Below are positions 11,012 to 31,582 of a DNA stretch of 64,000 nucleotides, piece by piece. The notes beneath the pieces are model-generated. The model was not told the origin of the DNA and did no database searches. It was given only the letters and a program-made list of their open reading frames with translations. A program made the position numbers and the translations under genes. Source of the DNA: an uncultured Methylomirabilota bacterium (GTDB lineage: Bacteria; Methylomirabilota; Methylomirabilia; Methylomirabilales; 2-02-FULL-66-22). The stretch's first letter is position 1. Every line of letters starts with the position of its first letter. The DNA is taken from contig CAWJSJ010000002.1 of assembly GCA_963845565.1 (NCBI GenBank), positions 1,024,001 to 1,088,000 on the forward strand. Direction: 5' to 3'.

Positions 11012-11206
11012 GCATTCGCAGGTTGCATGGACCGCCAGGAGTGCCCTGACGAACGCCGCACCGCGACCTCCTTCGGCGGGGCAACCGCCGCGTTATCAAG
11101 AGAACGCGAGGATACTCCGGAAATCACGGGTCCCCGTGTTGAGACCGAAGCGCCTGTCCTCGATCACGAAACGAGCAACCATGGGCGATGGGGAGACGGT
11201 CGGGAC

Positions 11207-12631
11207 ATGGAACGGCTGAGTCAGGAGCAAGGGCGAGCGCTTCGCGCGGCCGGAGCCGCGCCCGCGGCAGTCACGAAGTTTTCGCGCGCCCTCGACGCTC
11301 TGCGTCTGGCGGCGCGGTTGACCGGGAAGAGCCTGGCGGCTGACGCGCGGAAGGCCGGTGCGGTGTATGCGGGAGGCGCCGCGCTCCTGGCGGCCTGGCC
11401 GGCGAAGCCCCGGAGGGATGCCGTCCAGGCAGCGGGCGCGGAAATCGTGCACGGTCTCCTGCGGGCGGTGCGGAACCGATTCGCCCGGGCCTACGTGGGT
11501 CCGATCTACGACCGTGTGACCGAGCAGCGTCGGAGGTTTCTCCGCGCCGACGAGTTGGTCTACGCGGTGGCCGATCTCTGCCCCGGCCTCTGCCCGAGCC
11601 AGAAAGAGGTGGCGGCCGAACGCGGGCTGCTCCTTGCCGAGAAAGATGGGGTCGAGATCGCGCAGGGCGACTTCCTCTCGCACGTCTTCGTTCGCAAGGA
11701 GGCGGGAGACCACTTGCTGCATGCGATGCTCCAGCCGCTGCCGGCGTCGCAGGAGCTTCTGGCAAAGTTCCGGCGAGAGGGGCGGGTGGATCTCGGGACG
11801 GCCCACGTGGAGCGGCGCGGCGCGCTCGGGTGCGTGTTCTTCAATAACCTGCGCTACCTGAACGCCGAGGACGATACCACGGTCGGCCCCCTGGAGACCG
11901 CGATCGATCTGGTGCTGCTCGATTCCGACATCCAGGCGGGCCTGCTGCGGGGAAATCCGGTCACGCACTCCAAATACCGCGGTCGGCGAATCTTTTCCTC
12001 CGGGCTCAACCTGACTCACCTCTATCAAGGGAAGCTCCCGCTGCTTTTCTTTGCGACCAGGGATTTGGGGTTCGTCGGCAAGCTCTACCGGGGGCTGGCC
12101 GGCGACGAGTACGACCCCGACGGGCCCGAGGCCACCCTGGAGAAGCCCTGGATTGCGGCCGTGGAGGGGTTCGCCATCGGTGGCGGCTGCCAACTGCTCC
12201 TGGTCGTGGACTACGTGATCGCGGAAGCGGGGTCCTTCTTCAACCTCCCGGCCCGGAAAGAGGGGATCGTCCCTGGCGTGGCGCCCATTCGACTCCCGCG
12301 CTTCGTGGGGGAGCGGGCGACCCGGGAAGGGATCCTGTTCGACAAGACCTTCACCGCCGAGTCCCCGGAAGGGCGATCCCTTGCCAATGAGGTGGTCCCG
12401 GCCGGGCAAATGGACGAGGCCATCGCCCGCGCCGCGGCCGCCGTCACGGGCGGCGGCGTGATCAGCGCGGGGGCGAACCGCAAGGCCATCCGCCTCGGCC
12501 ATGAGCCCCGGGACCTCTTCCGGCAGTATATGGCCCTGTACTGTCGGGAACAGGCCACCTGCCAATTCAGCCCCACGCTGATCCGGAACCTCGAGCGCAA
12601 CTGGCGCGCAGCAGAACGGCCTCGGGAGTAG
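11207..12631 (+). CDS. DpgC-like crotonase-fold protein (3,5-dihydroxyphenylacetyl-CoA dioxygenase family)
   Basis: EKDGVEIAQGDFLS, YLNAED, KYRGRRIFSSGLNLTHL, EKPWIAAVEGFAIGGGCQLLL, LPARKEGIVPG. Confidence 0.8.
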   Translation: MERLSQEQGRALRAAGAAPAAVTKFSRALDALRLAARLTGKSLAADARKAGAVYAGGAALLAAWPAKPRRDAVQAAGAEIVHGLLRAVRNRFARAYVGPIYDRVTEQRRRFLRADELVYAVADLCPGLCPSQKEVAAERGLLLAEKDGVEIAQGDFLSHVFVRKEAGDHLLHAMLQPLPASQELLAKFRREGRVDLGTAHVERRGALGCVFFNNLRYLNAEDDTTVGPLETAIDLVLLDSDIQAGLLRGNPVTHSKYRGRRIFSSGLNLTHLYQGKLPLLFFATRDLGFVGKLYRGLAGDEYDPDGPEATLEKPWIAAVEGFAIGGGCQLLLVVDYVIAEAGSFFNLPARKEGIVPGVAPIRLPRFVGERATREGILFDKTFTAESPEGRSLANEVVPAGQMDEAIARAAAAVTGGGVISAGANRKAIRLGHEPRDLFRQYMALYCREQATCQFSPTLIRNLERNWRAAERPRE

Positions 12632-12961: not shown

Positions 12962-13549
12962 ATGGATCAATATTTGGTCTATCTTGTCACGGTGCTCGGG
13001 GTCGTGCTGTGCATGTTTTCGTTTGCCGTGATCTTCCGCGGCCAGCGCGTTCCGGGAGACGAAGGCAACCCGCAGGAACTGGAGTTCAAGGGCCTGAAAG
13101 TCAGAACGAACGTGGTCGTGTCGCTGCTCCTCGTGTCGGTCGTCGTGGCGGTGCTGCCGCTGGTTCTTCAGGCGTGGCCGCGGATTGTCGAGGCCCGCAG
13201 CCGAAGCTGTCCCGACCAGGTCGCGACGCCGGCGAAGCCGCAGGATCTCGCCCTATTCCTCACCGGACAGGTGCTGGACAACCAGGGGCCAGTGGAGGGC
13301 GCATCGGTGACCGTGGTCAACTTGAAGGACTCAAAACCCGGCGACCAGCAGGAGCCGGTGGCCAAGGTGGTGACAGACGGCAGCGGCAGCTTCGATTTCG
13401 CGCCCCTCCCCCTCAGTGACAGGGACCGCTACAAAGTGGTTGCGGCCAAAGACGGCTATATCGAGCAATACGTATACATGGGCCCAGCGGGGGCCGTCAC
13501 CGTGCGAACCGTGTTGGTGGCAAAGAAGAAGGGCGGAGGAAACCAATGA
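12962..13549 (+). CDS. 2-TM membrane protein with C-terminal carboxypeptidase-regulatory-like beta-sandwich
   Basis: two hydrophobic helices, then LTGQVLD..GPVEGASVTV...TDGSGSFDF...YKVVAAKDGY. Confidence 0.7.
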   Translation: MDQYLVYLVTVLGVVLCMFSFAVIFRGQRVPGDEGNPQELEFKGLKVRTNVVVSLLLVSVVVAVLPLVLQAWPRIVEARSRSCPDQVATPAKPQDLALFLTGQVLDNQGPVEGASVTVVNLKDSKPGDQQEPVAKVVTDGSGSFDFAPLPLSDRDRYKVVAAKDGYIEQYVYMGPAGAVTVRTVLVAKKKGGGNQ

Positions 13550-14379
13550 ACACGACGTCGTGGATGGGCGCCGCCGTGGTTGCGCTGGTGCTGATCGGCG
13601 GAGTGGCAGACGCGCAGCCGCTGGCGTCCCGCGTCGTATCGCAGCCTGACGGCGCCGAAATGGTTGTGGTGCCGGAAGGGTCGTTCACGTTCGGCGCAAA
13701 GCAGGAGGAGATCAAAGCGCTGCTCAAAAAGTTGAAGGCCGGCTGGGCCGACATCTACGCCGGTGAGCACAAGAAACAAACCGTGACGCTCCCGGCCTTC
13801 TACATCGATCGGCTCGAGGTCACCAACGAGCAGTACAACCGTTTCGTCGGCGCCGCCAAGGGCAAGCCCTCGCGCTTCGCTCGCTATCCCCAACTCAACG
13901 CACCGAAGCAGCCCGTCGTCGGCATCGGCTGGAAGGACGCCGAGGCGTATTGCCGTTGGTCGGGCAAGCGGTTGCCGACCGAGGAGGAGTGGGAAAAGGC
14001 GGCGCGCGGGACCGACGCCCGCACTTGGCCGTGGGGGAACGAGTCTGACGAGAAGGCGTTCAACGGGAAGGCCGCCGAGTATTCCGCCCCGGTCGCAGTC
14101 GGCAGCTTCCCGAGGGGCGACAGCACGTACGGCGCGGCGGACATGGCCGGAAACGTGTGGGAGATGACCTCCAGCACGTGGCAAGGCGACGCGAAAACGA
14201 TGCGCGGAGGGTCGTTCCTGAACCGTCTGGCCGACGTGCGCGTGACGGTGCGTTGGGCACCCGACGACCCGAGCCGAGGCACCAACTGGCTGGGCTTCCG
14301 CTGCGCCGTGGACGCGGGGATGGCACAAACGCTTTACGGAAAACCATCCCCCGCCGAACCGGCGAAGAAAGGGCCGTAG
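13546..14379 (+). CDS. exported FGE/SUMF1-fold (FGE-sulfatase domain) protein
   Basis: signal peptide; EVTNEQY, RLPTEEEWEKAARG, DMAGNVWE, RGGSF, GFRC; ATGA overlap with the upstream gene. Confidence 0.85.
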   Translation: MNTTSWMGAAVVALVLIGGVADAQPLASRVVSQPDGAEMVVVPEGSFTFGAKQEEIKALLKKLKAGWADIYAGEHKKQTVTLPAFYIDRLEVTNEQYNRFVGAAKGKPSRFARYPQLNAPKQPVVGIGWKDAEAYCRWSGKRLPTEEEWEKAARGTDARTWPWGNESDEKAFNGKAAEYSAPVAVGSFPRGDSTYGAADMAGNVWEMTSSTWQGDAKTMRGGSFLNRLADVRVTVRWAPDDPSRGTNWLGFRCAVDAGMAQTLYGKPSPAEPAKKGP

Positions 14380-14629: not shown

Positions 14630-17600
14630 GTGATGGGATCGGCGGCGAATGTCGAAGGTTCGCTCGGCGAGGCACCGCGACGGCGAGAGGATCTGCCCGA
14701 GGTCTCCGACGAGGCCGCTCAGGCCGCGCGAGAACAGGTTGCGCAGCGCACGTTCGTGCCGTCCACGCACCGGCCACCTGAGGAGGTGCTGCCCAATCCG
14801 GAATTCATCCGCATCCTCGACCAGGGGCAGGAAGGCGTCAGCGTCGGCGTCGCGTTGGCAGCGGTGCTCAACTATCTGCGCGCCGAGCAGGGCGAACGCG
14901 AGCCGGTCAGCCCGCGAATGCTGTACGAGTACGCGCGACTGTACGACGAATGGCGCGACGCCGATCACGAAGGCAGTTCGCTGGTCGGCGGCCTCGCCGG
15001 CCTGGTCCGCCACGGCGTATGCCTCGATACCGAATGGCCGCTGTATGACCCCAACCTCCGGCCCGACGCGGCTGCACTGAAGGCGGCGCTGACGAACCGG
15101 CCGGCCGCCGTGCTGCGAGTCGACAAACGCATTGAGCACCTGCGGGCCGCTGTGTTCGAGGACCACGCGGTCGTGGTGGCGGCGGAACTTCACGACGGTT
15201 GGCGGGAGCCGCTGCGCGGCGTGATCCCGTTTCGCGCCAAGCGCCGGGGGAAGGCTGCGACGCAGGGAAGCCACGCCTTCGCCCTGCTGGGCTATACCGC
15301 AGAGGGCTTCATCGTCCAGAATTCATGGGGCATGAACTGGGGCGGTGTCGAGCTGCGAGATCACCACCTGCCCGGGACCGCGATCTGGACCTACGACGAC
15401 GCGACGGCTCATCTTGTGGATGCCTGGGCGATCCAGCTGTCGCGCCGTCCCTACCACGCGCCGCTGGTTGGCTACGACGCCGATAGTCTGGAGGGGGACG
15501 ACCTGCTTGAGATCAAGGCCGAGGTGAACGCCTTCAGCTACGTGCTGGCGTCGCGCGCGATCAAGCCGCCGATGGCGTTGGGCCTGTTCGGCGACTGGGG
15601 CAGCGGGAAGTCGTTCTTCATGCAGGAGATGAAGAAGAAGATCGCGTCGCTCGCCGTGCTACCGGCCAAGCGCCCCGACAGCGGCGAGACGCGGTCGCCG
15701 TTCTGCCGCCAGATCGTACAGATCCGTTTCAACGCCTGGCACTACCTCGATACCGACTTGTGGGCAAGCCTGGTGACCGAAATCTTCGACGGCCTGTTCG
15801 CGGGCATCGGCGGCAAGACCGGTAAACCGGAGGAGAAGCTGCCCGAACTGGCGGTAGAACTGCAAAATGCCAACGGCGTGTACCAGCAGGCACGGCAGCA
15901 GTTGGAGGATGCGAAGACGGCGCGCGCGCGAGCGGAGGCCACGTTGCGGGACGCCGTCAAGGAGCGCGAGGACCGGGAGGTCGCGCTACGCACCCAGCTC
16001 AACGATCTGACGCAGTTGTTGAAGGACACGCCTGCCGTGAAAGCGCAGGTGGATCGGCTCGCCGCGGACCTCGGCATGCCCGAGATGAGAACGTCGTACC
16101 AGGCGCTCGATGCGCGGGCCACCGAGCTCAAGAGCATAACCCACGGGTTCACGGCATTGTTGCAGACGATGTTCTCGACGCCATGGGGCTGGCCACGACT
16201 GTTGTGGCTGATAGCAGCGATGTGCGCGCCAGTCCTGGTCGTGATGGGCATCGAGCTGCTGCGGTGGTGGTTTTCCGTGCCGATCGAACGCTTTCACGCG
16301 TTCGCAGTCCAGCTGAGCACGCTGCTGGCGGCCGTCACCGCCTGGCTGGGCGTGCAGGCCAAGCGCGGTGCGGGCGTGCTGGCCTCGTTGCGGGATGCGC
16401 ACCAGAAGCTGGAAGTGATCCGCGCCACGCGGCGAGCGGAGGCGGTGGCCAACCAGGAAGGCGCATTGCAGGCGCTGCGGGAGAAGGAAGACGCGGCCCG
16501 CAAGAGCATGCAGGATGCCGAGCAGCGCGTGCAGGCACTGCAACGCGAGATCGACGACCTGCAACCGGGACGATTGATCATGCGCTTCATCGAGGAGCGC
16601 ACCAAGTCGAGCGACTATCGCTCGCGGCTGGGGATCGTCAGCCTGGTGCGGCGCGACTTCGAGCGGCTGAGCGAGCTGGCCGACCCGGACTCCGACAAGC
16701 GCAACGCCGACGTGATGCCGGTGGAGCGGATCATCCTGTACATCGACGATCTGGACCGCTGCAAACCGGACCGCGTGATCGAGGTGCTGGAGGCGGTGCA
16801 CCTGCTGCTCGCCTTCCGGCTGTTCATGGTGGTGGTAGCTGTCGATCCGCGCTGGCTGCGCCGCTGCCTGGAAAAGCACTATCCCGACCTCCTGGCCCTC
16901 CGCACCCAGGAGGTGGCCACCGTGGCGCACGTGGTTCCGTCGCGTCCGGCCACGGCGCAGGACTATCTGGAGAAGATCTTCCAGATCCCGTTCACGCTGC
17001 AACCCCTGAAGGACGACGGCTACCGCCGGCTGATCCGCGGCCTGACCGAACAGAACCGCATGCCGGATACGCTCGTGCCGCTGGCAGGCCGTACGAGTGC
17101 GACCGGCGCTGCGCTATCCGCCACCGGGCAGGCAACGGCGGGCACCGAGAGCGGTCAGGCGCAAGGTATGCCGTTGTCTGCGGTGACGGATGTGATCAAG
17201 GCGCAGGCCAAGCAGGCATTGCGCGACCAGGCCACCGCGGAAGACACAGCCGAAAGCGAGGAAAGCGCCATCGAACGGCTGCGTATCCGCGCGTGGGAAC
17301 TGGACGATATGGAGCGCCTGGCGCCACTCTTCCACACGCCGCGTGCGGTCAAGCGCTTCGTCAACACCTATCGTTTCCTGCGTGCCGGGGTGCGGCAACA
17401 ATACCTCGGCCGCTTCGAAGGCGAACGGGACGAGCCGGGCACCTACCGCGCCGCGCTGACCTTGCTGGCAATCATCGTCAGCTACTCCAACGTCGCACCC
17501 CGCTTTCTGCGACGGATCCTCGATACCGCCGAGCGCGGCGCCTCGAAGCAGGGCTGGCTCGACTTCCTGCGAGACGCGCGGGCCGATGCCGTCAGCCTGG

Positions 17601-17887
17601 TGCACGACGCCGAAGACGGTGGGCCGGCGAGCGTGACTGTGCGCAGTACGAGCGGACGCTCGACCCGGAAAACGCCGGCCACACGGCCGCGCGAGGCGGG
17701 AGCGGGTCCGCTGCCGCGCAACTGGGAAGAGGTCGAGTGGCTTCAGTTGTGCGATGCGCTGCTCGGCGTGTCGAAGGATGAGTTCCCGGTGCGCGAGATC
17801 GGGGAGCTCGAAGAATGGGCTCACACCGTGGCGCGCTATTCATTCTCGCTGGGGCCCGTGCCGACGGTCGCTCACCCCGGCCGCTGA
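14630..17887 (+). CDS. papain-like (C1) domain fused to membrane-anchored KAP-family P-loop NTPase
   Basis: C1 motifs DQGQEGVS, SPRMLY, GSHAFALLGY, QNSWG; KAP motifs GLFGDWGSGKS, FNAWHY, coiled-coil plus 2 TM insert, YIDDLDRC, YLEKIFQIPF, TPRAVKRFVN. Confidence 0.85.
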   Translation: MMGSAANVEGSLGEAPRRREDLPEVSDEAAQAAREQVAQRTFVPSTHRPPEEVLPNPEFIRILDQGQEGVSVGVALAAVLNYLRAEQGEREPVSPRMLYEYARLYDEWRDADHEGSSLVGGLAGLVRHGVCLDTEWPLYDPNLRPDAAALKAALTNRPAAVLRVDKRIEHLRAAVFEDHAVVVAAELHDGWREPLRGVIPFRAKRRGKAATQGSHAFALLGYTAEGFIVQNSWGMNWGGVELRDHHLPGTAIWTYDDATAHLVDAWAIQLSRRPYHAPLVGYDADSLEGDDLLEIKAEVNAFSYVLASRAIKPPMALGLFGDWGSGKSFFMQEMKKKIASLAVLPAKRPDSGETRSPFCRQIVQIRFNAWHYLDTDLWASLVTEIFDGLFAGIGGKTGKPEEKLPELAVELQNANGVYQQARQQLEDAKTARARAEATLRDAVKEREDREVALRTQLNDLTQLLKDTPAVKAQVDRLAADLGMPEMRTSYQALDARATELKSITHGFTALLQTMFSTPWGWPRLLWLIAAMCAPVLVVMGIELLRWWFSVPIERFHAFAVQLSTLLAAVTAWLGVQAKRGAGVLASLRDAHQKLEVIRATRRAEAVANQEGALQALREKEDAARKSMQDAEQRVQALQREIDDLQPGRLIMRFIEERTKSSDYRSRLGIVSLVRRDFERLSELADPDSDKRNADVMPVERIILYIDDLDRCKPDRVIEVLEAVHLLLAFRLFMVVVAVDPRWLRRCLEKHYPDLLALRTQEVATVAHVVPSRPATAQDYLEKIFQIPFTLQPLKDDGYRRLIRGLTEQNRMPDTLVPLAGRTSATGAALSATGQATAGTESGQAQGMPLSAVTDVIKAQAKQALRDQATAEDTAESEESAIERLRIRAWELDDMERLAPLFHTPRAVKRFVNTYRFLRAGVRQQYLGRFEGERDEPGTYRAALTLLAIIVSYSNVAPRFLRRILDTAERGASKQGWLDFLRDARADAVSLVHDAEDGGPASVTVRSTSGRSTRKTPATRPREAGAGPLPRNWEEVEWLQLCDALLGVSKDEFPVREIGELEEWAHTVARYSFSLGPVPTVAHPGR

Positions 17888-20030: not shown

Positions 20031-20049
20031 CCTGAAGGGAGGATGAGCC

Positions 20050-20307
20050 ATGCGAGCACGCGTTGTGCGGATCGGGAATTCACGGGGAGTACGCATCCCC
20101 AAGCCGCTCATCGAACAGGTTGGCCTACAGGACGAGGTCGAGATTGCCGTGGAAGGCAGCAGCCTGATCATCCGCGCCGCTGCGCGCCCCCGCGCGGGCT
20201 GGGCGACGGCGTTCCGGATGATGGCCGAGCGGGGAGACGATCGGCTACTGGACGTTGCCGGAGGCTCGACGACCAAGTGGGACGAGGACGAATGGGAATG
20301 GAAGTGA
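20050..20307 (+). CDS. mazE: MazE/AbrB-family antitoxin
   Basis: RIGNSRGVRIPK; acidic DEDEWEW tail. Confidence 0.88.
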   Translation: MRARVVRIGNSRGVRIPKPLIEQVGLQDEVEIAVEGSSLIIRAAARPRAGWATAFRMMAERGDDRLLDVAGGSTTKWDEDEWEWK

Positions 20308-20621
20308 ACCGATTCGAGGTCTACCTGGTCACCCTCGACCCGACCCTGGGAAGCGAGATCCAGAAGACCCGCCCGTGCCTGGTGGTGTCGCCCGACGAAA
20401 TGAACCACCACATCCGGACGGTCATCGTCGCCCCCATGACCACAAAAGGGCAACCCTATCCCACCCGCGTCCCCTGCCGGTTCAAGGGCAGGGCGGGCCA
20501 GATCGTCCTCGACCAGATCCGGACCGTGGACAAAACCCGGCTCGTCCGCCGTCTCGGCCGCCTCGACCCCAAGACCGGGATGAAGGTCCTCGCCGTCCTC
20601 GCTGAACTCTTCGCCCCGTAG
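20298..20621 (+). CDS. mazF: MazF/PemK endoribonuclease toxin
   Basis: LDPTLGSEIQKTRPCLVVSPDEMN, DQIRTVDKTRL. Confidence 0.92.
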   Translation: MEVNRFEVYLVTLDPTLGSEIQKTRPCLVVSPDEMNHHIRTVIVAPMTTKGQPYPTRVPCRFKGRAGQIVLDQIRTVDKTRLVRRLGRLDPKTGMKVLAVLAELFAP

Positions 20622-20643
20622 TTTCTTCTTTGACAACGGCTTA

Positions 20644-20740
20644 CTACGACTACGCGCCTGATGGGCCGATGAGCCCGTGATCGTTTTCCACCACGCATGA
20701 TCTCGTGGAGTACGCACCGCTCCTGGCTGGGCGGATTCTC
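20644..20740 (+). repeat. structured-leader repeat, copy B (5'-truncated)
   Basis: CTACGACTACGCGCCTGATGGGCCGATGAGCCCGTGATCGTTTTCCACC..., nearly identical to 22400-22495. Confidence 0.8.
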
Positions 20741-20794
20741 GCCGTCTGAAGGGCGCTTGCTAAATACGGAAACTTCGGCCATGGTCGTTCTGAT

Positions 20795-20926
20795 ATGAAG
20801 AGACGCCGACGTTACAAGATGCATCTCGTGGTCAATGGGCGCTCGATCGAGGAAGTGGTGACTGACCCCCACTACGAGGTCAAACACTCCGAAATCGACG
20901 ACGAGCCCATCTGCTTTCGGAGGTAG
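20795..20926 (+). pseudogene. short ORF, possibly an internally deleted gene remnant
   Basis: 43 aa MKRRRRYKMHLVVNGRSIEEVVTDPHYEVKHSEIDDEPICFRR, protein-like composition in lower-GC DNA. Confidence 0.3.
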
Positions 20927-21030
20927 TGTGCAGGAAGGCCCCTCGGAAGAAGACCGCGATCAGCACCGGCACGCCGTTAGGTTCACAGCGCTTTGGAACA
21001 TGCGCTTCCCCTGATATGCATTGAAACGTC

Positions 21031-21115
21031 TGACTCCTGGTTACACGCGGAGAGCCTGTTGCTGATAAGAGGTGAAGGGAGGCAACGAGTCATGGGACGC
21101 AAGGTCCCCCATGAC
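21031..21115 (+). repeat. junction repeat family 2 with terminal hairpin
   Basis: TGACTCCTGGTTACACGCGGAGAGCCTG...GTCATGGGACGCAAGGTCCCCCATGAC. Confidence 0.65.
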
Positions 21116-21158
21116 AGCATAATGGACAAAGAGACGACCATATGCTAAATACAGTCCC

Positions 21159-22319
21159 ATGATAAGACGACCGTACTGGATCGAGCGGATTCATGCCGCC
21201 TGGAAGAAGCGGCCCATCGTCTGGCTCGCGGGCGTGCGCAGAGCCGGCAAGACCACGCTGGCCAGGATGCTTCCTGAGGCCGTCTACCTGAACTGCGACC
21301 TGCCGTCCGTGCTCCATCGGCTCGAAGACCCGGAGCTGTTCTATCGCTCCCTCTCGAAAGGAGCCACGGTCGTCTTCGACGAGGCGCACCGGCTGCCCGA
21401 CCCGGCACAGGTCCTCAAGATCGGCGCTGATGCGTTCCCTCGACTCCGTCTTTTGGCGACGGGCTCGTCCACCCTCTCGGCAACCCGCAAGTTTCGCGAC
21501 ACCCTGGCAGGCCGCAAAACGCTCTTGCCCTTGCCGCCGATTCTCTGGCCGGAGTGCGAGGCCGAATTCGCAGTGAGGGACCTAGACCGCCGCCTCTTTC
21601 GCGGTGGGCTTCCCGAGGCCCTTCTCGCGGACGAGCCAGATGCCGCCTCTTACGCGGAATGGCTGGACAGTTTCTACGCCCGCGACATCCAGGAGTTGTT
21701 TGGCATCCGGGAGCGCACGGGCTTTCTCAATCTCCTCCGCCTGATGCTTCGGCAAAGCGGCGGTCTTGTCGACTACTCGGCCCTGTCGCGCGAATGCGAT
21801 CTCAGCCGGGCGACCGTGAAATCCCACCTCGAAGCCATGACCGTCGCCTGCGCCCTGATCCCGGTTCCGCCTTTCCACGGGGGTGGCCGGCGAGAGTTGG
21901 TCCGTCGCCCGAAGGTCTACGCCTTCGACACGGGGTTCGTGGCCTACGCCCGCGGCTGGCAAGACCTGCGCGCCGAGGACCGCGGGCCGCTCTGGGAGCA
22001 CCTGGTCCTGGACGTGTTGCGCACGGCCCACGAAGGCCAAGAGGTGGCGTACTGGCGGGACAAATCGGGGCGGGAGGTGGATTTCGTCATCCCGCGGGGC
22101 CGACGGGTGGACACCTACGAGTGCAAGATGACTCCTGGGCGGTTCGACCCTGAATCCCTCAAGGTTTTCCGGTCCCACTATCCCGACGGGGAGAACTTCC
22201 TGGTTACACCCGGAATCGAGAGCCCTTACGACCACACATTCGAGGGCCTCGTCGTCCGCGTCACCGGCTGCCGCGACCTGCTGCTCCGAACGATACGACC
22301 GACCGCGGCTCATTCTTGA
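21159..22319 (+). CDS. AAA_14 ATPase with DUF4143 (PD-(D/E)xK-like) C-terminus
   Basis: GVRRAGKTTL, VFDEAH, TGSS, PKVYAFDTG, YWRDKSGREVDFV..YECK. Confidence 0.88.
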   Translation: MIRRPYWIERIHAAWKKRPIVWLAGVRRAGKTTLARMLPEAVYLNCDLPSVLHRLEDPELFYRSLSKGATVVFDEAHRLPDPAQVLKIGADAFPRLRLLATGSSTLSATRKFRDTLAGRKTLLPLPPILWPECEAEFAVRDLDRRLFRGGLPEALLADEPDAASYAEWLDSFYARDIQELFGIRERTGFLNLLRLMLRQSGGLVDYSALSRECDLSRATVKSHLEAMTVACALIPVPPFHGGGRRELVRRPKVYAFDTGFVAYARGWQDLRAEDRGPLWEHLVLDVLRTAHEGQEVAYWRDKSGREVDFVIPRGRRVDTYECKMTPGRFDPESLKVFRSHYPDGENFLVTPGIESPYDHTFEGLVVRVTGCRDLLLRTIRPTAAHS

Positions 22320-23570: not shown

Positions 23571-24704
23571 ATGATGCAGAAACTTTTCAAATCATTCTCG
23601 TTTATGGTGTGTCTGGTGCTGGTATGGATGTTCGCGGTTGGCGTTGACCAAGCGTTTTCGGCCAGCAAGGCAGCCGACACGGTTGACAAACAGGCGCCGC
23701 GCAACGTGGATCTGAATCCCGTGCTCGCGGCACCCGTCAGCTTACGATTGGGTTACGAAGACAGGGCGACCTGGCCCGGCGTTGCGAATACACCGGACCC
23801 GGAGCACGCCTTCGCTCTGATTTTCAAGCAGTTCGTCGAAGAACGAACGAACGGCACGGTCAAAATTCAACTGTTCGCGCAAAGCCAGATCGGCGGCTCG
23901 AAACAGATGACCGAAATGGTGCAGGCCGGCACATTGGACCTTTGCATAGGGACGGGTGTCATGGGTGGGTTCTACCCCAAGTTTGAAGTCATTTACCTAC
24001 CCTATGCCTTCCAGTCCGAGGAAATCGCCTGGTGGGTTTTTGACAACAGCAAATTCTGGAAGAATCTCATGGCCGATATGGAGAAAACCGTCGGCATTAC
24101 CTATCTGGGGATGGGACAGAACGGCGTCCGAAACTTTACCAACAACAAACGAGAAATCCGTCAACCGTCCGACTTGAAAGGGCTTAAATTACGGGTCATG
24201 CAGTCTCCCATATATGTAAAGATGGTAGAGGCGCTGGGAGGCAATGCCGTCCCGATCGCCTGGGCGGAACTTTACACCGCACTTCAAACTGGTGTCGTGG
24301 ATGGTCAGGAAAACCCCATCTCCATCATTGAGTTGGGTAAGATTCATGAAGTGCAGAAGTATCTGACCCTCGACGGTCACACCTGGAGCGAGGACATGCT
24401 GGTGATCAATACGGCGAAATTCAACAGTTTCCCCGAGGGGGTGAAACATGTCCTGAAGATGGGCGGATTGCACGGGGCAAGGGCCGACCGGGCTGCCGAG
24501 GCATTCAAAACAAGGGTGACAGATCTTGCCAAAGTGGCCGCCAAGTTGAAAATATACAAACCGACGCCGGCCGAGCTCAAGAAGTTCCAGGATACGGCCA
24601 AACCGCCGGTGGTTGCATACCTCAAGGAAAAGATCGGTCCGGAAACGGTTGACTCTTTCTTCAGCGCGGTTGAAGAAGCGGAAATCGCTTTAGGATATAA
24701 ATAA
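23571..24704 (+). CDS. dctP: TRAP transporter solute-binding protein
   Basis: signal peptide; DLKGLKLRVM, ELYTALQTGVVDGQENP. Confidence 0.9.
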   Translation: MMQKLFKSFSFMVCLVLVWMFAVGVDQAFSASKAADTVDKQAPRNVDLNPVLAAPVSLRLGYEDRATWPGVANTPDPEHAFALIFKQFVEERTNGTVKIQLFAQSQIGGSKQMTEMVQAGTLDLCIGTGVMGGFYPKFEVIYLPYAFQSEEIAWWVFDNSKFWKNLMADMEKTVGITYLGMGQNGVRNFTNNKREIRQPSDLKGLKLRVMQSPIYVKMVEALGGNAVPIAWAELYTALQTGVVDGQENPISIIELGKIHEVQKYLTLDGHTWSEDMLVINTAKFNSFPEGVKHVLKMGGLHGARADRAAEAFKTRVTDLAKVAAKLKIYKPTPAELKKFQDTAKPPVVAYLKEKIGPETVDSFFSAVEEAEIALGYK

Positions 24705-24725
24705 TCCAGCGCCGTAATTTGTACA

Positions 24726-24764
24726 ACCCAATCCCCCTCGCCATCGCCTAGAGGGGGATTGGGT
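24726..24764 (+). other. intergenic stem-loop after dctP (mRNA stabiliser or partial terminator)
   Basis: perfect 14-bp stem ACCCAATCCCCCTC/GAGGGGGATTGGGT. Confidence 0.6.
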
Positions 24765-24803
24765 GCAATTCGAAAGATGCATCATGCGAAGGGCCAAAGC
24801 AAA

Positions 24804-25343
24804 ATGGGTGCGAATCATCTCAACCCTGTCGTCGATTTCTTGAGAAAAGCCAGCGATGTTGCCGACAGGATCGCGCTGGTGCTGGTGACAGTATATATAT
24901 CCATTGTAACCTTCCTGGCCTTGCTCGGAATCACTTATCGATTGCTGGGGAACTCCCTCTCCTGGGCGGAGGAACTGTCCCGCTGGTTTCTCATCGGGAT
25001 TGCCTTCGTCGGCGCCAGCGTGGTGCTTAAAAGGGGCGCGCATGTCGGCGTGGTCTTTTTTCTGAAATGCCTGAAAAGCACGGCATTGATCAAATATATT
25101 ACGGTCATCGCCAATGTGCTTGTGCTGGTGTCGCTGGCGTACTTCTTCTGGTTCGGATTGCTGGCGGCCCTCGGCTCTTTCAGGCAGATGGGAGGCATCA
25201 TCCAGGTTCCCATGGCGTATGTGAAATTCAACCTGCCGCTGGGTTGTTTTTTCATGATCGTTCACATGCTTTACTATATCGTCGGCGCCGCGACCGCGAA
25301 AAACGGCGTTGAGGAGTATATCCTGAGCAGAAGCGAAGAGTAG
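24804..25343 (+). CDS. dctQ: TRAP transporter small permease
   Basis: WAEELSRW, GAHVGV, 4 TM. Confidence 0.85.
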   Translation: MGANHLNPVVDFLRKASDVADRIALVLVTVYISIVTFLALLGITYRLLGNSLSWAEELSRWFLIGIAFVGASVVLKRGAHVGVVFFLKCLKSTALIKYITVIANVLVLVSLAYFFWFGLLAALGSFRQMGGIIQVPMAYVKFNLPLGCFFMIVHMLYYIVGAATAKNGVEEYILSRSEE

Positions 25344-25351
25344 GAGAAAAG

Positions 25352-26642
25352 ATGGTATTGACCTATATTGGAATCACCTTTGTAGTAACGATGCTCATGG
25401 GCGTGCCGATCGCCTTCATACTGGGACTCATCCCACTGGGCTACCTGGTTTTCTTCAGCAACATTCCGTTGACCGTAATCGGCCAGACGCTGTTTAACGG
25501 GGCCGACAGCTACATTCTGCTGGCGATCCCGTTTTTCATATCTGCTTCGATTTTGATGAACCGTACCGGCATTACCCGGGACCTGATCAATTTTGCCAAT
25601 CTGATCGTCGGCAGACTCCCGGGAAGCCTGTCCCAGGTCAATATCATATCCAGCATGATCTTCGCCGGTATCACCGGGGCCGCGGTGGCGGATGCGGCTG
25701 CAATCGGCGGCATTCTCATCCCGGCCATGAAGGAAGAAGGATATACGCCTTCGTACAGCGCCGCGTTGACGGTTGCCGCTTCCATCATGGGACCGATTAT
25801 CCCGCCCAGTATCATCATGGTGATTTACGGGTCCATCACGGGAGACTCGATCGGGGCGCTCTTCATGGCGGGTTTCATGCCGGGCATCATGATCGCCGTC
25901 TCGCTGATGATCGTGGCAATCTATTATGCGATTAAAGACAAGCATCCCCGACGTACGACAGGCTACACGCTGAAGGAGTCCGTCAGCATCATCCGAAACG
26001 CGCTGTTGGCCCTGATGATGCCGGTGATCATTGTCGGGGGGATTCTCAGCGGACAATTCACGCCGACCGAGGCGGCCGCCATCGCCTGTGCGTATGCGTT
26101 CATTGTCGGCTTCTTCATTTACAAGCAGCTTACCCTAAGGGACCTGATCGACAGTCTCAAGGAGGGCGCCATCACTTCCGGAGCAATTCTGTTGATTATT
26201 GCTGCGGCGAGAGCTGTTCGGTCTCATGATGTCGATCGAAGCCCTGCCGCAGCAGATCGCGGAAGTGTTCATGACCATTTCCACCGATAAATACGTTTTT
26301 CTGCTGATCGTGAACATTTTCCTGCTGTTTATGGGAATGATCATGGAAACAGGCGCCAATGTCATTCTGCTTGCGCCGATTCTGATTCCCATCGCCATTC
26401 AATATGGGATTCATCCCCTGCATTTTGCGCTGGTTGTATTGGTGAACGTAAACATCGGACTCGCGACCCCGCCCTTGGGCGTCTGTCTCTTCGTGGTTGC
26501 GCCCATTGCCAAGACCTCTTTTGAAAATGTTGTTTCCAAGATATTTCCTTTCTTGGTGGCGGAGATAACCGTACTGTTCTTAATAACGTATATTCCGGAG
26601 CTGATTCTGTTTGTGCCGCGGATGTTCGGCTTCGCGGTATAG
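25352..26642 (+). CDS. dctM: TRAP transporter large permease, +1 frameshift near 26210
   Basis: LAIPFF, GAAVADAAAIG, IIPPSI, TPTEAA; continues in ORF 26199-26642 (GLATPPLG). Confidence 0.85.
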
Positions 26643-27045
26643 CCCTAATTGACAGATGCCAAGTGATCCGTGACACCCAGATGTTGTTCTGCCCACGATC
26701 CTTCGAGACAAACGAGCTCAGAAATGAACGAGTGCCTCCATGGGTGGGAAGAAAACTAGGGGACGTTGGCAATTACAGCAAACAGTGATCCGCGATCAAG
26801 TCCCCGCCCCAGTTGCCATGCTTTCCGCGGTTTGTCCTGTGTCGCATACCGAGCGAATTTGTAATCGTAATAGGGGACGCTCCCACCTTCGTCACCTTGT
26901 TGCTTGGTGGTTGTCACCTCGGACGTTGCCATGTTCATCACCTTAAGTGAGATTCTATCGAACAGACCGCACCCGCACGTCGAAACACCTTTCAAGCGAT
27001 TCCTGACGCGGAGCCAAGGAGAATCGGCGCTCTGTGCCCACATTG

Positions 27046-28653
27046 CTACCGCCTTGAAAAGAAGTCCGCGCTGTTCTTCCGCAGGAGGACGATTGCGAAC
27101 GACACGTAGAGAAGCAAGCCCAGGACGACGTAGCCTCGAGGATAATACTGCGCGTGAAACGCGGTCAGAATGCCGAATGCGCCCCAGCCAAGGTAGAACC
27201 ATCTGGCCCATCCGACCCCGCGGAGCAAGAGCACGCCAGTCACAAAAGCCACGAAGATTGATGCATATGCAAATACGATCATGCCAAACACATTGAACGG
27301 CCATACGTTCATGACGGAGCGCATCCACTGCGCATCCATCATTCCGGAGAAGGTGACCGGCATCACACTGGTGCTCACCATGGAAAGGGCATAGTTCCTG
27401 AAGATGCCACGCGTCAGAATGAGCGCGAGCCGGATCGCCGACGATACAATCAGGGCCCACCCGAGAACCGTCACCCCGATCGGTCTCGTTCTGATGACGG
27501 GCGGAGCGACCGTATCGGCGTTCACGGCCCGCCTGTCTTCCGCACCGAGGGCAAAGAAGAAGCCGATCGGCATCGTGAGCAAGGCGAGGATCCCGATGCC
27601 CGGCCGCCGCTTCTGGATACCCGTTGCCAGTCCGGCGAGCCCAATGAGGACGGGAAGCCCATAAAGCAGCGCGTGCCCCACCAGTTCGCTGGTGTCCGTC
27701 CCCACGGCGTGATGAAAAGCCACCCACATCGAGTGGCCAAAGAGGATCGACCCGAGAAAGGCCACATACAGACAGATCAGCGCCAAGCCGACCTTCGCGC
27801 CGCCAACCATGCGCCGCCTGCCCGCGCGAGCCCCGTCGGACACCGTGTGTGTCCCCAACTCGCCGTTACCAATGGCGGTCGCGTCCGTTCCGTGCGCTCC
27901 CTCCGATGCCGCACCGGCCACGACTCCCTCGGACTGGATTCCGCGAGGCACCACAGCCCGCGGCCTGCGCTTCAGGCCCCCGAGTCCGGCGACCACCACG
28001 GACACCCCGAGAATCGCCCAGAGCACGGTGTAGTCCTGATGGTACGTGATGTCGGCCAGTACTTTCGACCGGAGCGCAAAATACCCCCCTCCCGCACTCG
28101 CACATCCCCACATGAGACCCCGTACAACACTCCACGTCCACTGGCGCGCGCGGACCTTGCGACTGACGTAATGGAGCCCACATCCAAGAATGGACAAGGG
28201 GACAACCAGGATGCCAGTCAAGAGTCCGAGTATGGCCAGGTGGCTGAGGCCGGATCGTGGATCGAAGCCGGACAGATTACGTAAGGGATTATGCGGCCCT
28301 GACACGTTGGGCAAGAAGTCGCAGGCAAGTGGAATGAGGAAGAGCAGCCACGGAGTCCCCATCGCCTCGACGAAGGACCTGCCGAACAGGGCCACGAGCA
28401 TGACGCAGAGGGGGATGACCATCAACATGGACACCACCGCGACGACGTGCCGCTCGACCGTCCGCACGTCCTGCAGGACCGCAAGACCCCCGAGAGCTAG
28501 CGTCATGAACGCCAGCCCCGCCGGGGAGACTGTGCGGATCACCCGCCCCACCCAGGTCGTCGGAGGCGCGAAACGGGCGACGACAATCCTCCCCACGAAA
28601 AGCATCAACCCCGTGCCCAAGACGAAATACGCCGTTGGCATGTTGGCTCCCAT
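27046..28653 (-). CDS. multi-TM hypothetical protein, possibly a read-through of 2-3 small membrane genes
   Basis: long hydrophobic ORF with polar linkers; last block RPIGVTVLGW...GVGWARW looks like a stand-alone membrane domain. Confidence 0.5.
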   Translation of the reverse strand: MGANMPTAYFVLGTGLMLFVGRIVVARFAPPTTWVGRVIRTVSPAGLAFMTLALGGLAVLQDVRTVERHVVAVVSMLMVIPLCVMLVALFGRSFVEAMGTPWLLFLIPLACDFLPNVSGPHNPLRNLSGFDPRSGLSHLAILGLLTGILVVPLSILGCGLHYVSRKVRARQWTWSVVRGLMWGCASAGGGYFALRSKVLADITYHQDYTVLWAILGVSVVVAGLGGLKRRPRAVVPRGIQSEGVVAGAASEGAHGTDATAIGNGELGTHTVSDGARAGRRRMVGGAKVGLALICLYVAFLGSILFGHSMWVAFHHAVGTDTSELVGHALLYGLPVLIGLAGLATGIQKRRPGIGILALLTMPIGFFFALGAEDRRAVNADTVAPPVIRTRPIGVTVLGWALIVSSAIRLALILTRGIFRNYALSMVSTSVMPVTFSGMMDAQWMRSVMNVWPFNVFGMIVFAYASIFVAFVTGVLLLRGVGWARWFYLGWGAFGILTAFHAQYYPRGYVVLGLLLYVSFAIVLLRKNSADFFSRR

Positions 28654-28749: not shown

Positions 28750-31582
28750 TCATCCGGTGGAGCGCATGGCGGTGGCGATGCCGTTGATGGTGAGGTGGAG
28801 CGGCCGGCGCAGGGCGGCCATGGTCTCGGCGTTCGCCTCCGCCCCGTCCGGTCCCTGCAGCGCGCGCATCCGCCGGAGCAGGCTCACCTGGATGTAGGAG
28901 AGCGGGTCCACGTAGGGATTCCGCAGGCGCAGCGACCGCTGGAGGCCCGGGTCGTTGTCCAGGAGCTCCACCTGTTCGGTGATGCCCAGGAGCACCTCGC
29001 GGCAGGTCTCGTACTCGGACCGGATGCGCTCGAAGATCCGGGCGCCCACGGCGGGATCCTGTACCAGGGACGCGTACCGGTGGGCGATCCCCATGTCCGC
29101 CTTTTCCATGGTCATCTGGGCATTCTCGATCACCCGGGTGAAGAACGGCCATTGGCGGTACATGGTGCGCAAGAGCGACAGGTGTTCCGCGGGATTCTCC
29201 GACAGGAAGCTCTTGAGGGCCGTGCCCATGCCGTACCAGCCGGGGAGGTAGTGGCGACTCTGGACCCAGGCGAACACCCACGGAATCGCCCGCAGGTCCT
29301 CGAAGCCGCTTGTACCATGCCGCCGAGCGGGCCGCGACGCGATATTCAGCCGACTGATCTCCTGGACCGGGGTCGCCTCCTCGAAGTACTGGAACGCGTC
29401 GGGGTCCTCGACCACCAGCGCCCGGTAGGCCCGGTGCGCCCGGTCGGAGATATCGGCCATCACGGCGGGCCAGGCGGGAGCGACGGCGGACGCCTCGTAC
29501 GCGCCGGTGCTGGTCTCCAGGACCGATGACGCGACCAGCTCCAGATTGCGCATCGCCACCTGGGCATCCCCGTACTTGTAGTGGATCATCTCCCCCTGTT
29601 CGGTGATCTTGATCTTCCCGCCCACGCTCCCGCGCGGCTGGGCGTGGATCGCCTCGTGCATGGGTCCGCCGCCGCGGCCCACCGTCCCGCCCCGGCCGTG
29701 GAAGATCCGGAGCTTCACGCCCTGCGACTGGGCCGACGCCGCCAGCCCCTGCTGTGCCACGTACAGCTCCCAGTTCGAGGTGAGGTAGCCGCCGTCCTTG
29801 CTGCTGTCGGAGTATCCCAGCATCACCTCCTGAATCCCCCCGCGGCCTGCGAGATGCGCCCGATACGCCCGATTGGCGTACAGCGCGTCCATGATGTGCG
29901 GGGCGGCGCGGAGGACGTGGATCTTCTCGAAGAGGGGCACCAGATCCAGCCGACTTTCGACCCCGCCGGTCTCCCGTGTGACGAGGCCGGCCTCCTTGGC
30001 CAGCAGCAGGGCCGCCAGGACGTCGCTGGGCTGCTCGGTCATGCTGATGATGAAGGCGGTGACTGCCGCGGGCGCCACCTCGGTCTGGGCACGTCGGATG
30101 ATCCGAAAGAGCTCGATGGTGTCCGTGGTGGTCGCGCTCCACCGGGCAAACGGCGGAATCAAGGGGCGCGGCGTCTCCAGCTCGCGCGTGAGGAGCGCTT
30201 GCCGTTCCGATTCGTCGAGCGAGCGGAGATCCCGGTCCGTCAGGCCGACCGCCAGCGCAATCTCCGCGACGGTCGCGCGGAGCGCCGCGGCATCCTGCCG
30301 GATGTCGAGGGGCGCCAGATGGAAGCCGAAGACGCTGACCTGGTCCATCATGGCCTGGACGATCCCCTCCGCGAGGCGTGCGCCGCGGTTGGCGGCGAGG
30401 CTCCCATGGATCAGGGCCAGGTCGGCCAGGAGTTCCGCGGCCTGGGCGTACGGCCACGCGTCCCCGGCAGGGCCGGGCGTTCCGGCGAGCCGCGCGTTGG
30501 CGAGCCGCGACGCGTCCAGCCGCCGGCCCATGCAGCGCAGCTTGCGCCGATACCACTCGGACTCGTTCCGCGAGTCCGCCCGCGCCTCCATCAGGCCGAG
30601 TCGCGCCTCGTCGGCTTCCACCGACGCACGCAAGTCTTCCTCCACCCCGACCTGTCCTTGCGACTGGCTGAGCGCCGCACCGAGGCGCTCGACCCCGGCT
30701 CGGTGCTTCCGCAACGCGAGATCCTTGTGCAGCCGCAGCGTCTCCCAGGTGGTCTCCAGCGTGACGTGGGGATTCCCGTCCCGATCGCCCCCGATCCACG
30801 AGCCGAGCCGGAAGAAGGGGGGGATGCGAAACGTCGTCTCGGGGTAATGTCTCCGCAGGGCATGTCGCAGATCGCGATAGATCCGGGGCAGCACCTCCCA
30901 CAGGACTTCGTCGAAGTAGAACAGGCCGTTGCGGACCTCGTCCTGGACCGTCGGCGGCCGGCGCCGGACTTCATCGCTCTGCCAGATGGCGGTGATGTCC
31001 GCGAGGATGTCGTCCTCCAGCCATCTCCTGCTCCCGAACCGTCAGGAGCTGCTGGTCCAGGGCGGCCAGGTGTCCGGAGATCCGCTGGGTCTTCTCCAGA
31101 ATGCTCCGCCGCTTGGCTTCCGTCGGATGCGCGGTGAGGACCAGCGTGATGTCCAAGGTGTGAAGCAGCGCCTGGAGATCCTGGGCGGCGACGCCGGCGC
31201 GGCGGCAGTGCGCCACCGCATGGTCGAGCGACCCGGGCCGGGAACCAGCCGGAGCCGCGAGCTCGTCCTGCCGGAGCTTTCGGGTCTCGTGAATCTGCTC
31301 GGCCACGTTGACGAGCTGCAGGAAGGTGGTAAATGCCCGGATGATCTGGCTGGAGGTCGGCAGGTCGAGACCCTCGGTCAGGCAGGCCATCTCCGCCTCC
31401 CGTTCCAGGGAAAAGGTCTGCCGGAGGTCCTTGCTCAGATTCCGGATCCGTTCTTCCGTCTCGAACAGCGCGCTGCCCGCTTGCTCCCGGATGACGTTCC
31501 CCAGGAGATTCCCAAGGCGGCGAATGTCGCCGCGCAGTGGGGCATCCCCGGCGGAAGGGTCTCGCAACGTATTCTCAGACAT
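28750..31582 (-). CDS. ppc: phosphoenolpyruvate carboxylase, +1 frameshift near 31021
   Basis: LTAHPTE, GSWIGGDRDGNP, VMLGYSDSSKDGG, FHGRGGTVGRGGGP, RAIPWVF, C-terminal MRSTG; split over ORFs 30971-31582 and 28750-30894. Confidence 0.93.

Follow-up and report, generated by a model that had tools for sequence, protein, structure and literature searches.

Known systems closest to the C1-KAP gene

KAP nucleoside triphosphatases (NTPases) have only recently been shown to act as single-gene phage defences, and the regions fused to them are mostly of unknown fold. Here we describe a gene that joins a papain-like (family C1) domain, with serine in place of the catalytic cysteine, to a membrane KAP NTPase. 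It lies in 64,000 nucleotides of contig CAWJSJ010000002.1 from an uncultured Methylomirabilota bacterium, and this whole stretch is called the window below. We observed that the N-terminal domain has the papain fold, that the Cys-His-Asn triad is lost in every fused family member seen, that the Walker motifs are intact, and that the gene stands alone and occurs patchily. The reading that we prefer, at a rough probability of 0.45, is that a dead, peptide-binding module gates a one-gene, inner-membrane KAP NTPase effector acting in defence.

Single-gene KAP anti-phage proteins require the Walker B motif (PMC13552941). The protein described here shares with the EF_KAP class and PifA its KAP_NTPase domain, the intact Walker motifs in it, membrane segments and a fused extra region, and like them it is encoded by one gene. 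Unlike in those proteins, the extra region is N-terminal and is a recognisable dead protease, and there is no recombinase or island context. Tmn proteins (YobI-type) resemble it in being encoded by a single gene and in having long helical arms; they have two predicted transmembrane helices inside the P-loop domain, where our protein has one strong and one weak candidate segment, and they sense through a C-terminal solenoid, without an accessory domain (PMC13001434). Tmn also features an oligomer and Mg2+ export according to that paper.

Two further parallels concern the dead domain. SERA5 of Plasmodium has a Ser-type papain fold that is non-enzymatic and retains peptide binding; as in our protein, Ser stands at the catalytic Cys position, His and Asn are kept, and a Ser-to-Ala change is tolerated (PMC4671257). 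The model of our C1 domain matched SERA5 with a VIA Z of 15.9 and a root-mean-square deviation (rmsd) of 3.6 over 204 residues. In contrast, SERA5 is eukaryotic, secreted, of separate origin and not fused to an NTPase. The C39 peptidase-like domain (CLD) of HlyB is likewise N-terminal and inactive and sits on a membrane ATPase, which it modulates, and it binds polypeptide (PMC11026475). However, HlyB carries a C39 family domain on an ABC exporter with secretion partners, whereas the protein studied here carries a C1 domain on a KAP NTPase and has no partners.

Domain architecture and the residue at position 71

The open reading frame (ORF) at 14630-17887 (+) translates into 1,085 residues with no internal stops, and a start at ATG 14633 fits a 99%-identical database protein of 1,084 amino acids (aa). 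The features of the gene are as follows (pLDDT, predicted local distance difference test).

14630..17887 (+): gene for the fusion of a papain-like, Cys-less C1 domain and a KAP NTPase; 1,085 aa; start GTG 14630 or ATG 14633
14747..15445 (+): xylellain-like C1 domain, aa 40-272; pLDDT of the model mostly >85
14822..14824 (+): Gln65 (CAG), position of the oxyanion hole; occupied by Gln in 82% of the 51 fused domains and in 100% of active relatives
14840..14842 (+): Ser71 (AGC), catalytic Cys position; from the alignment, contigs and cluster members
15272..15274 (+): His215 (CAC), triad position; His in 40/51 fused domains
15320..15322 (+): Asn231 (AAT), triad position; retained in 98%
15464..17851 (+): KAP P-loop NTPase module, aa 279-1074; Pfam KAP_NTPase
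15590..15613 (+): Walker A, aa 321-328; Lys327 in 49/49 homologues
15839..16558 (+): long hairpin of helices (coiled coil) that separates Walker A from Walker B, aa 404-643; secondary structure of the model
16199..16354 (+): predicted transmembrane hairpin tipping the insert; one strong segment (aa 524-542) and one weak (aa 557-575) by hydropathy
16739..16762 (+): Walker B region, aa 704-711; Asp707, Arg710 and Cys711 in 49/49 homologues

The fusion of a C1 domain to a KAP NTPase, as claimed in the original prediction, is real, and Gln65, Ser71 with its AGC codon, His215 and Asn231 are as described there. Xylellain (PDB 3OIS) is the best solved relative of the C1 domain both by sequence, with Ser71 opposite its catalytic Cys (phmmer E 8.9e-9), and by fold (Foldseek E 2.6e-10; VIA Z 24.9, rmsd 2.6 over 225 residues). 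The Gln, nucleophile, His and Asn positions follow each other in the order of papain family C1A. A Pfam PF00112 match was not obtained for the query at E 0.001, and several of its homologues do match this family. A linker of low model confidence (aa 274-290) connects the C1 part to the KAP part, which matches Pfam KAP_NTPase with E 6.6e-29 (101.5 bits against a curated cut-off of 20) and has both Walker motifs intact. No solved structure was found for the KAP part by sequence search, and the KAP-only model had no PDB match at E 0.001 in Foldseek. Its VIA matches (coiled coils; RdrA, Z 9.3-10.1) were within the range of common arrangements and were not used.

Two transmembrane helices had also been predicted. 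The first was strong (Kyte-Doolittle 2.22 at 524-542), while the second was weak (1.72 at 557-575); at hydropathy >1.5, two such segments were present in 13/51 family members and one in 38/51. The model has a helical hairpin here, with pLDDT 50-68. Since no signal-like hydrophobic segment was seen at the N-terminus by hydropathy, the C1 domain is presumably cytoplasmic.

AGC is one base from TGC, and an error at this codon had been raised as a caveat. We aligned to the gene the contigs (not raw reads) of four public runs from four studies, designated X9, X7, X11 and X2. The X9 contig spans 14522-15372 and has 19 differences, all 19 listed, with none at 14840-14842. Contigs of X7 and X11 cover the Ser71 codon, and none of the differences listed (15/17 and 3/7, respectively) falls there; this codon is outside the coverage of the X2 contig. 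In addition, Ser is present in 6/6 members of the query's cluster that cover the motif (15 of the 24 members are listed). The Ser71 AGC codon is genuine and not a sequencing error, because an independent contig and the six covering cluster members all carry Ser. An ordinary active C1-KAP fusion disguised by a miscalled base was rejected on this agreement and has almost no probability left: other ORFs of the window do appear truncated, but no fused homologue has the intact triad.

Three irregularities were seen elsewhere in the window. The phosphoenolpyruvate carboxylase ORF at 28750-30894 (-) lacks the first 214 profile positions, possibly through a frameshift or assembly error; the DctM ORF at 25352-26290 covers just 285/413 profile positions; and at 24001-28000 the GC content drops to 53-57% around TRAP transporter genes.

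The fused family, its active site and its N-terminal slot

The full-length search gave 269 matches among 8,000 scored candidates, and 49 of the 120 listed were C1+KAP fusions with 36-99% identity; further fusions came from locus scans, a domain search and a profile search of 50% representatives. The named carriers are metagenome-assembled genomes of Rhodocyclaceae, Piscinibacter, Enterobacteriaceae (one 4-kb contig), Pyrinomonadaceae, Anaerolineales, other Chloroflexota, Gammaproteobacteria and Gemmatimonadaceae. Searches of same-genus genomes and of relatives, several of them incomplete, gave the fusion in 0/20 and 0/60, respectively. Near-identical copies were present in 12 runs at half of the sampled words or more; RNA runs contained just 5-12% of the sampled words. 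The C1-KAP family is small, patchy and cross-phylum. One copy (L091:6957-8438) is split into several frames, as an error or a pseudogene.

We tabulated the active-site columns for 51 fused domains at <90% identity, query included. The nucleophile column holds Ser 32, Ala 9, Val 3, Ile 2, Gly 2, Cys 1, Thr 1 and Met 1, so that Ser is the commonest residue but is not invariant, and Cys occurs in 1/51. The substitutions at position 71 are uncharged without exception. His is kept in 40 domains and elsewhere replaced by Thr, Ile, Ser or Gln; Ser-His-Asn is present in 30 and Cys-His-Asn in none, the only Cys-bearing fused member (P0036) having Gln in place of His. Eight more fused proteins from the profile search, which cover both columns and were not filtered against the 51, added one Ser-His-Asn and no Cys-His-Asn. 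The totals are therefore 31/59 and 0/59, where the 59 omit three N-truncated proteins, P0326 (no His column), the broken L091 copy and sequences at >=90% identity.

The active relatives look different. Besides xylellain they include multidomain C1 + alpha/beta-hydrolase proteins of 600-700 aa, which have the same fold, share 37-48% identity over the domain and are the probable donor clade. Unlike the fused domains, the unfused relatives from the domain search keep Gln-Cys-His-Asn (100/100), and in the profile search 119/133 unfused matches did so, several of the rest resembling cut fusions. The pocket-flanking Gly69 and Ala70 are conserved in 100% and 96% of active relatives, compared with 56% and 49% of fused domains. 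The N-terminal PDxxDxRD motif was found in 79/100 active proteins versus 2/48 fused ones; in xylellain this segment blocks the cleft.

Parsimony on the KAP tree required 11 changes in the nucleophile column (domain median 12), 8 in the His column and at least 9 for the Ser-His-Asn state, and 13 columns were invariant. In the lineage next to the query (P0004, P0009, P0011 and P0012; support 1.0), Gln, Ser and His are all lost and the whole domain is kept. A pseudo-protease, one of two options offered in the original prediction, fits this pattern, and we favour it over a serine protease because the triad state changes at least nine times while the fold core and the Walker motifs stay. An active C1A cysteine peptidase is at odds with Ser71 in the query and with the family total for Cys-His-Asn, and the invariant Ser-His-Asn expected of a silicatein-like enzyme is restricted to 31/59. 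Judged from these alignments, the C1 domain is very probably non-catalytic.

The other option, a Ser-His-Asn protease, lost ground, the triad being absent in 28/59 fused domains. It would make the Gln-Ser-His-Asn lineages, including the query, true serine hydrolases or proteases gated by the NTPase, with Ser71-His215-Asn231 a working triad in about half of the family, silent until the KAP NTPase is triggered and acting as an immune effector; the dead versions would be secondary losses derived repeatedly. The frequency of Ser-His-Asn speaks for it, as does Ser being the parsimony ancestral state of the nucleophile column; the low site rates and joint losses of Ser and His, given with the counter-evidence below, point the same way, and silicateins are natural Ser-type papain-fold catalysts (discussion of PMC4671257). 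However, some of the state changes separate very close sisters (P0047 Ser and P0048 Gly; P0029 Ser and P0031 Thr), and the Ala clade retains Gln, His and Asn without a nucleophile, so retention of these residues needs no catalysis. The Ser codons read among 17 fused loci are AGY in 10/10, with no switch to TCN, as expected from a single ancestral step from TGY. Moreover, the SERA5 paper knew of no significantly active Cys-to-Ser cysteine peptidase (PMC4671257). We consider the serine enzyme improbable, both as a gated hydrolase and in its fuller form as a triggered immune effector.

Comparable changes were seen outside the fused family. P0257 and P0268 underwent an independent Cys-to-Ser change within the active C1 + alpha/beta-hydrolase clade, and P0268 additionally has an N-terminal TIR domain. 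L109:175-1932 (-) of genome G019 and P0223 represent a separate dead C1 lineage with Val at the nucleophile and Ser for Gln; their C1 domain is C-terminal, and the N-terminus of the protein has a hydrophobic segment.

All 51 fused proteins formed one clade in a tree of the KAP part only (FastTree support 0.93), from which P0074 and the more distant WD40 KAPs were omitted. The fused C1 domains separated from the active C1 + alpha/beta-hydrolase proteins (SH-aLRT 99), which are their closest unfused relatives. These are quick trees. In the C1 tree, four fused rows with long branches were placed outside the main fused clade, so a single origin rests on the KAP tree. The C1 protein of the unpublished genome G055 contributed a single unfused row to one tree and one table, and none of our claims depends on it. 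The fusion probably arose once, from the clade of active C1 + alpha/beta-hydrolase proteins.

Retention of the domain after the loss of its triad could mean little if it were a passenger in slow decay, or a folding spacer, left behind by the fusion, and the KAP part worked alone. The pocket residues do drift, 7/17 changed codons in the N-terminal part are non-synonymous in strain X9, and besides the L091 locus, which is in pieces, there are long contigs that carry a cluster member as a fragment. In contrast, the other 10/17 changed codons in X9 are silent, and the domain remains full length with an invariant core over a KAP tree whose branches sum to 22 changes per site. Its core Trp, Gly and Asn are 96-100% conserved at a mean identity of 43%, and the fused clade has conserved residues of its own that differ from those of active relatives (Val72 96%, Pro55 98%, Gly88 96%, Pro158 100%). 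A mere passenger is therefore unlikely, and by analogy with the dead domains above we think it likely that the C1 domain has been retained for a binding role.

A possible reuse of the dead domain as an outside sensor is represented by the database protein P0232 (745 aa). Its CHAT domain, in which His and Cys motifs are present, is followed by a transmembrane segment and a C-terminal dead C1 domain (Ala, Thr) that nests inside the KAP-fused clade (SH-aLRT 98). The N-terminal slot of KAP proteins also receives other domains. In 19 related KAPs we found TIR (6), Tle1-like (2) and phosphoesterase, jacalin and trypsin-SLOG (1 each); WD40 stood at the N-terminus in 13/38 more distant KAPs scanned (L051-L080, mostly Actinomycetota), and precomputed labels on related KAPs included Clp-N, CHAT, S53, EVE and peptidoglycan-binding domains. 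The slot accommodates binders and enzymes, which alone does not settle whether its occupant is a sensor or an effector.

Individual loci carry KAP NTPases fused to a Tle1-like phospholipase (L009, L032), a phosphoesterase (L084), an amidohydrolase (L039) and jacalin (L020). The KAP TIR domains of P0062, L013, L024 and L025 seemingly lack the usual catalytic Glu in a rough alignment by eye; some sister TIR and trypsin domains likewise seem to lack catalytic residues and others keep them, as judged by eye and not counted.

Genomic context and the proposed mechanism

The mechanism that we propose begins with the dead cleft, which would bind a peptide or protein without cutting it; the ligand might be a protein of the invader or, with the domain serving as bait, a protease inhibitor that the invader brings. 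Ligand binding, as SERA5 and the HlyB CLD suggest, may turn on the NTPase, which would assemble through its coiled coil and transmembrane hairpin. Once activated, the NTPase might damage the membrane or the ion balance, after the examples of Tmn and PifA, with an anti-phage outcome by analogy with EF_KAP. That the dead domain is specifically an integrated decoy for invader-encoded C1 protease inhibitors seems to us rather improbable. A role as regulator or decoy of a resident active C1 paralogue was rejected, since the organism's own genome (98.7% complete) yielded no such paralogue.

A role in phage defence or conflict is somewhat favoured, because of the analogy with PifA, EF_KAP and Tmn and the patchy distribution of the family. 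The same dead binding module could instead have a job outside defence, in signalling or protein handling, where it would hold a cellular client or unfolded peptide and couple this to a membrane NTPase. Housekeeping neighbourhoods without island features fit such a job, the species seems to carry the gene stably, to judge from the near-identical copies in 12 runs, and Clp-N domains on related KAPs and the HlyB CLD offer precedents. However, the fusion is rare and patchy across phyla, related KAPs swap conflict-type domains in the N-terminal slot, and the KAP and Tmn proteins tested in the cited work are anti-phage (PMC13552941, PMC13001434). We regard the non-defence job as unlikely, though less so than a passenger domain.

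A number of observations weigh against the dead gating module in defence. At 17 other fused loci, of which 16 have neighbours and many lie on short contigs, no shared partner was found and the neighbours are mostly housekeeping genes; neither there nor in the window is there a defence island or mobile-element context, so that the defence role put forward in the original prediction stands by analogy only. PADLOC matched 14/101 neighbours, all through generic domains such as kinase, ABC, methyltransferase, TIR and CHAT, and with no background control. The GC content of the gene is at the level of the window, and no tRNA was found in these 64 kb. A full-length PADLOC or NCBIfam match is absent: the query matches the QatA, PDC-S20 and PifA profiles solely around Walker B, reaching 75 bits against the QatA cut-off of 600, and E 9.4e-6 over only 50 residues for PifA. 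No other C1 domain was found in the organism's own genome. In the EF_KAP class the region of unknown fold is C-terminal, and EF_KAP is not abortive (PMC13552941). P0232 is represented by one sequence, from a contig of 5 kb. By maximum-likelihood site rate, Ser71 is the 45th and His215 the 40th slowest column of 230, in the slower fifth and at odds with the parsimony count, and His is lost in 9/19 Ser-less versus 2/32 Ser-bearing members (kin that are not independent). Because of these low rates and the concentration of His losses in Ser-less members, we take the pocket to be constrained to some degree, as is compatible with binding no less than with catalysis.

Further scans of the locus gave little. 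No Tmn-named model is among the query's seven PADLOC matches, no Qat-named match occurs among the neighbours, and the promoter and terminator scan found no site beside the gene. The gene sits between an FGE-sulfatase-domain gene (13546-14379, upstream) and a URO-D/MtaA-like gene. A link to the former, or to any conserved partner, was rejected, there being no shared partner across the other loci; no FGE match was found among the neighbours scanned there, whose ORFs were called by a GC3 heuristic that may miss small genes. At 2-4 kb downstream, a MazF/PemK toxin gene is followed by an AAA_14-DUF4143 ATPase (PADLOC PDC-S01, E 1e-52; window 20043-22319, +). A DpgC-like dioxygenase match at 11027-12631 (+) reached 384.6 bits, below the cut-off of 530, and the scanned neighbours showed no dpg cluster. 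Of the neighbourhoods seen, L087:727-10051 was the most conflict-like: kinase-TPR genes and a BTAD regulator lie to either side of its C1-KAP gene.

We did not find the C1-KAP fusion described in the literature searched, whose scope left out subscription papers and supplements, where architecture tables could list it. PMC10380794 states that it left multidomain prokaryotic C1A proteins without detailed analysis, and 'KAP' and 'NTPase' are absent from its main text; in the accessible parts of PMC8195603 and bioRxiv 10.64898/2026.10.19.760177, KAP and papain appear in unrelated contexts. C1-KAP is a new architecture among membrane KAP NTPases with a fused module. The Ser itself is the less novel part, because Ser-type papain pseudo-enzymes are already known and the query domain behaves like them.

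Here the region fused to the KAP NTPase has a well-understood fold with a defined cleft, and the family provides natural Ser, Ala, Gly, Val and Ile variants at the nucleophile, with and without His. Two questions thereby become directly testable: do KAP accessory domains work as sensors or as effectors, and can Ser ever act as the nucleophile of a papain-fold peptidase? If the binding model is true, the protein would be a bacterial pseudo-protease receptor paralleling SERA5 and the HlyB CLD; if the serine triad works, bacteria would possess a naturally occurring serine peptidase of papain fold that serves as an immune effector.

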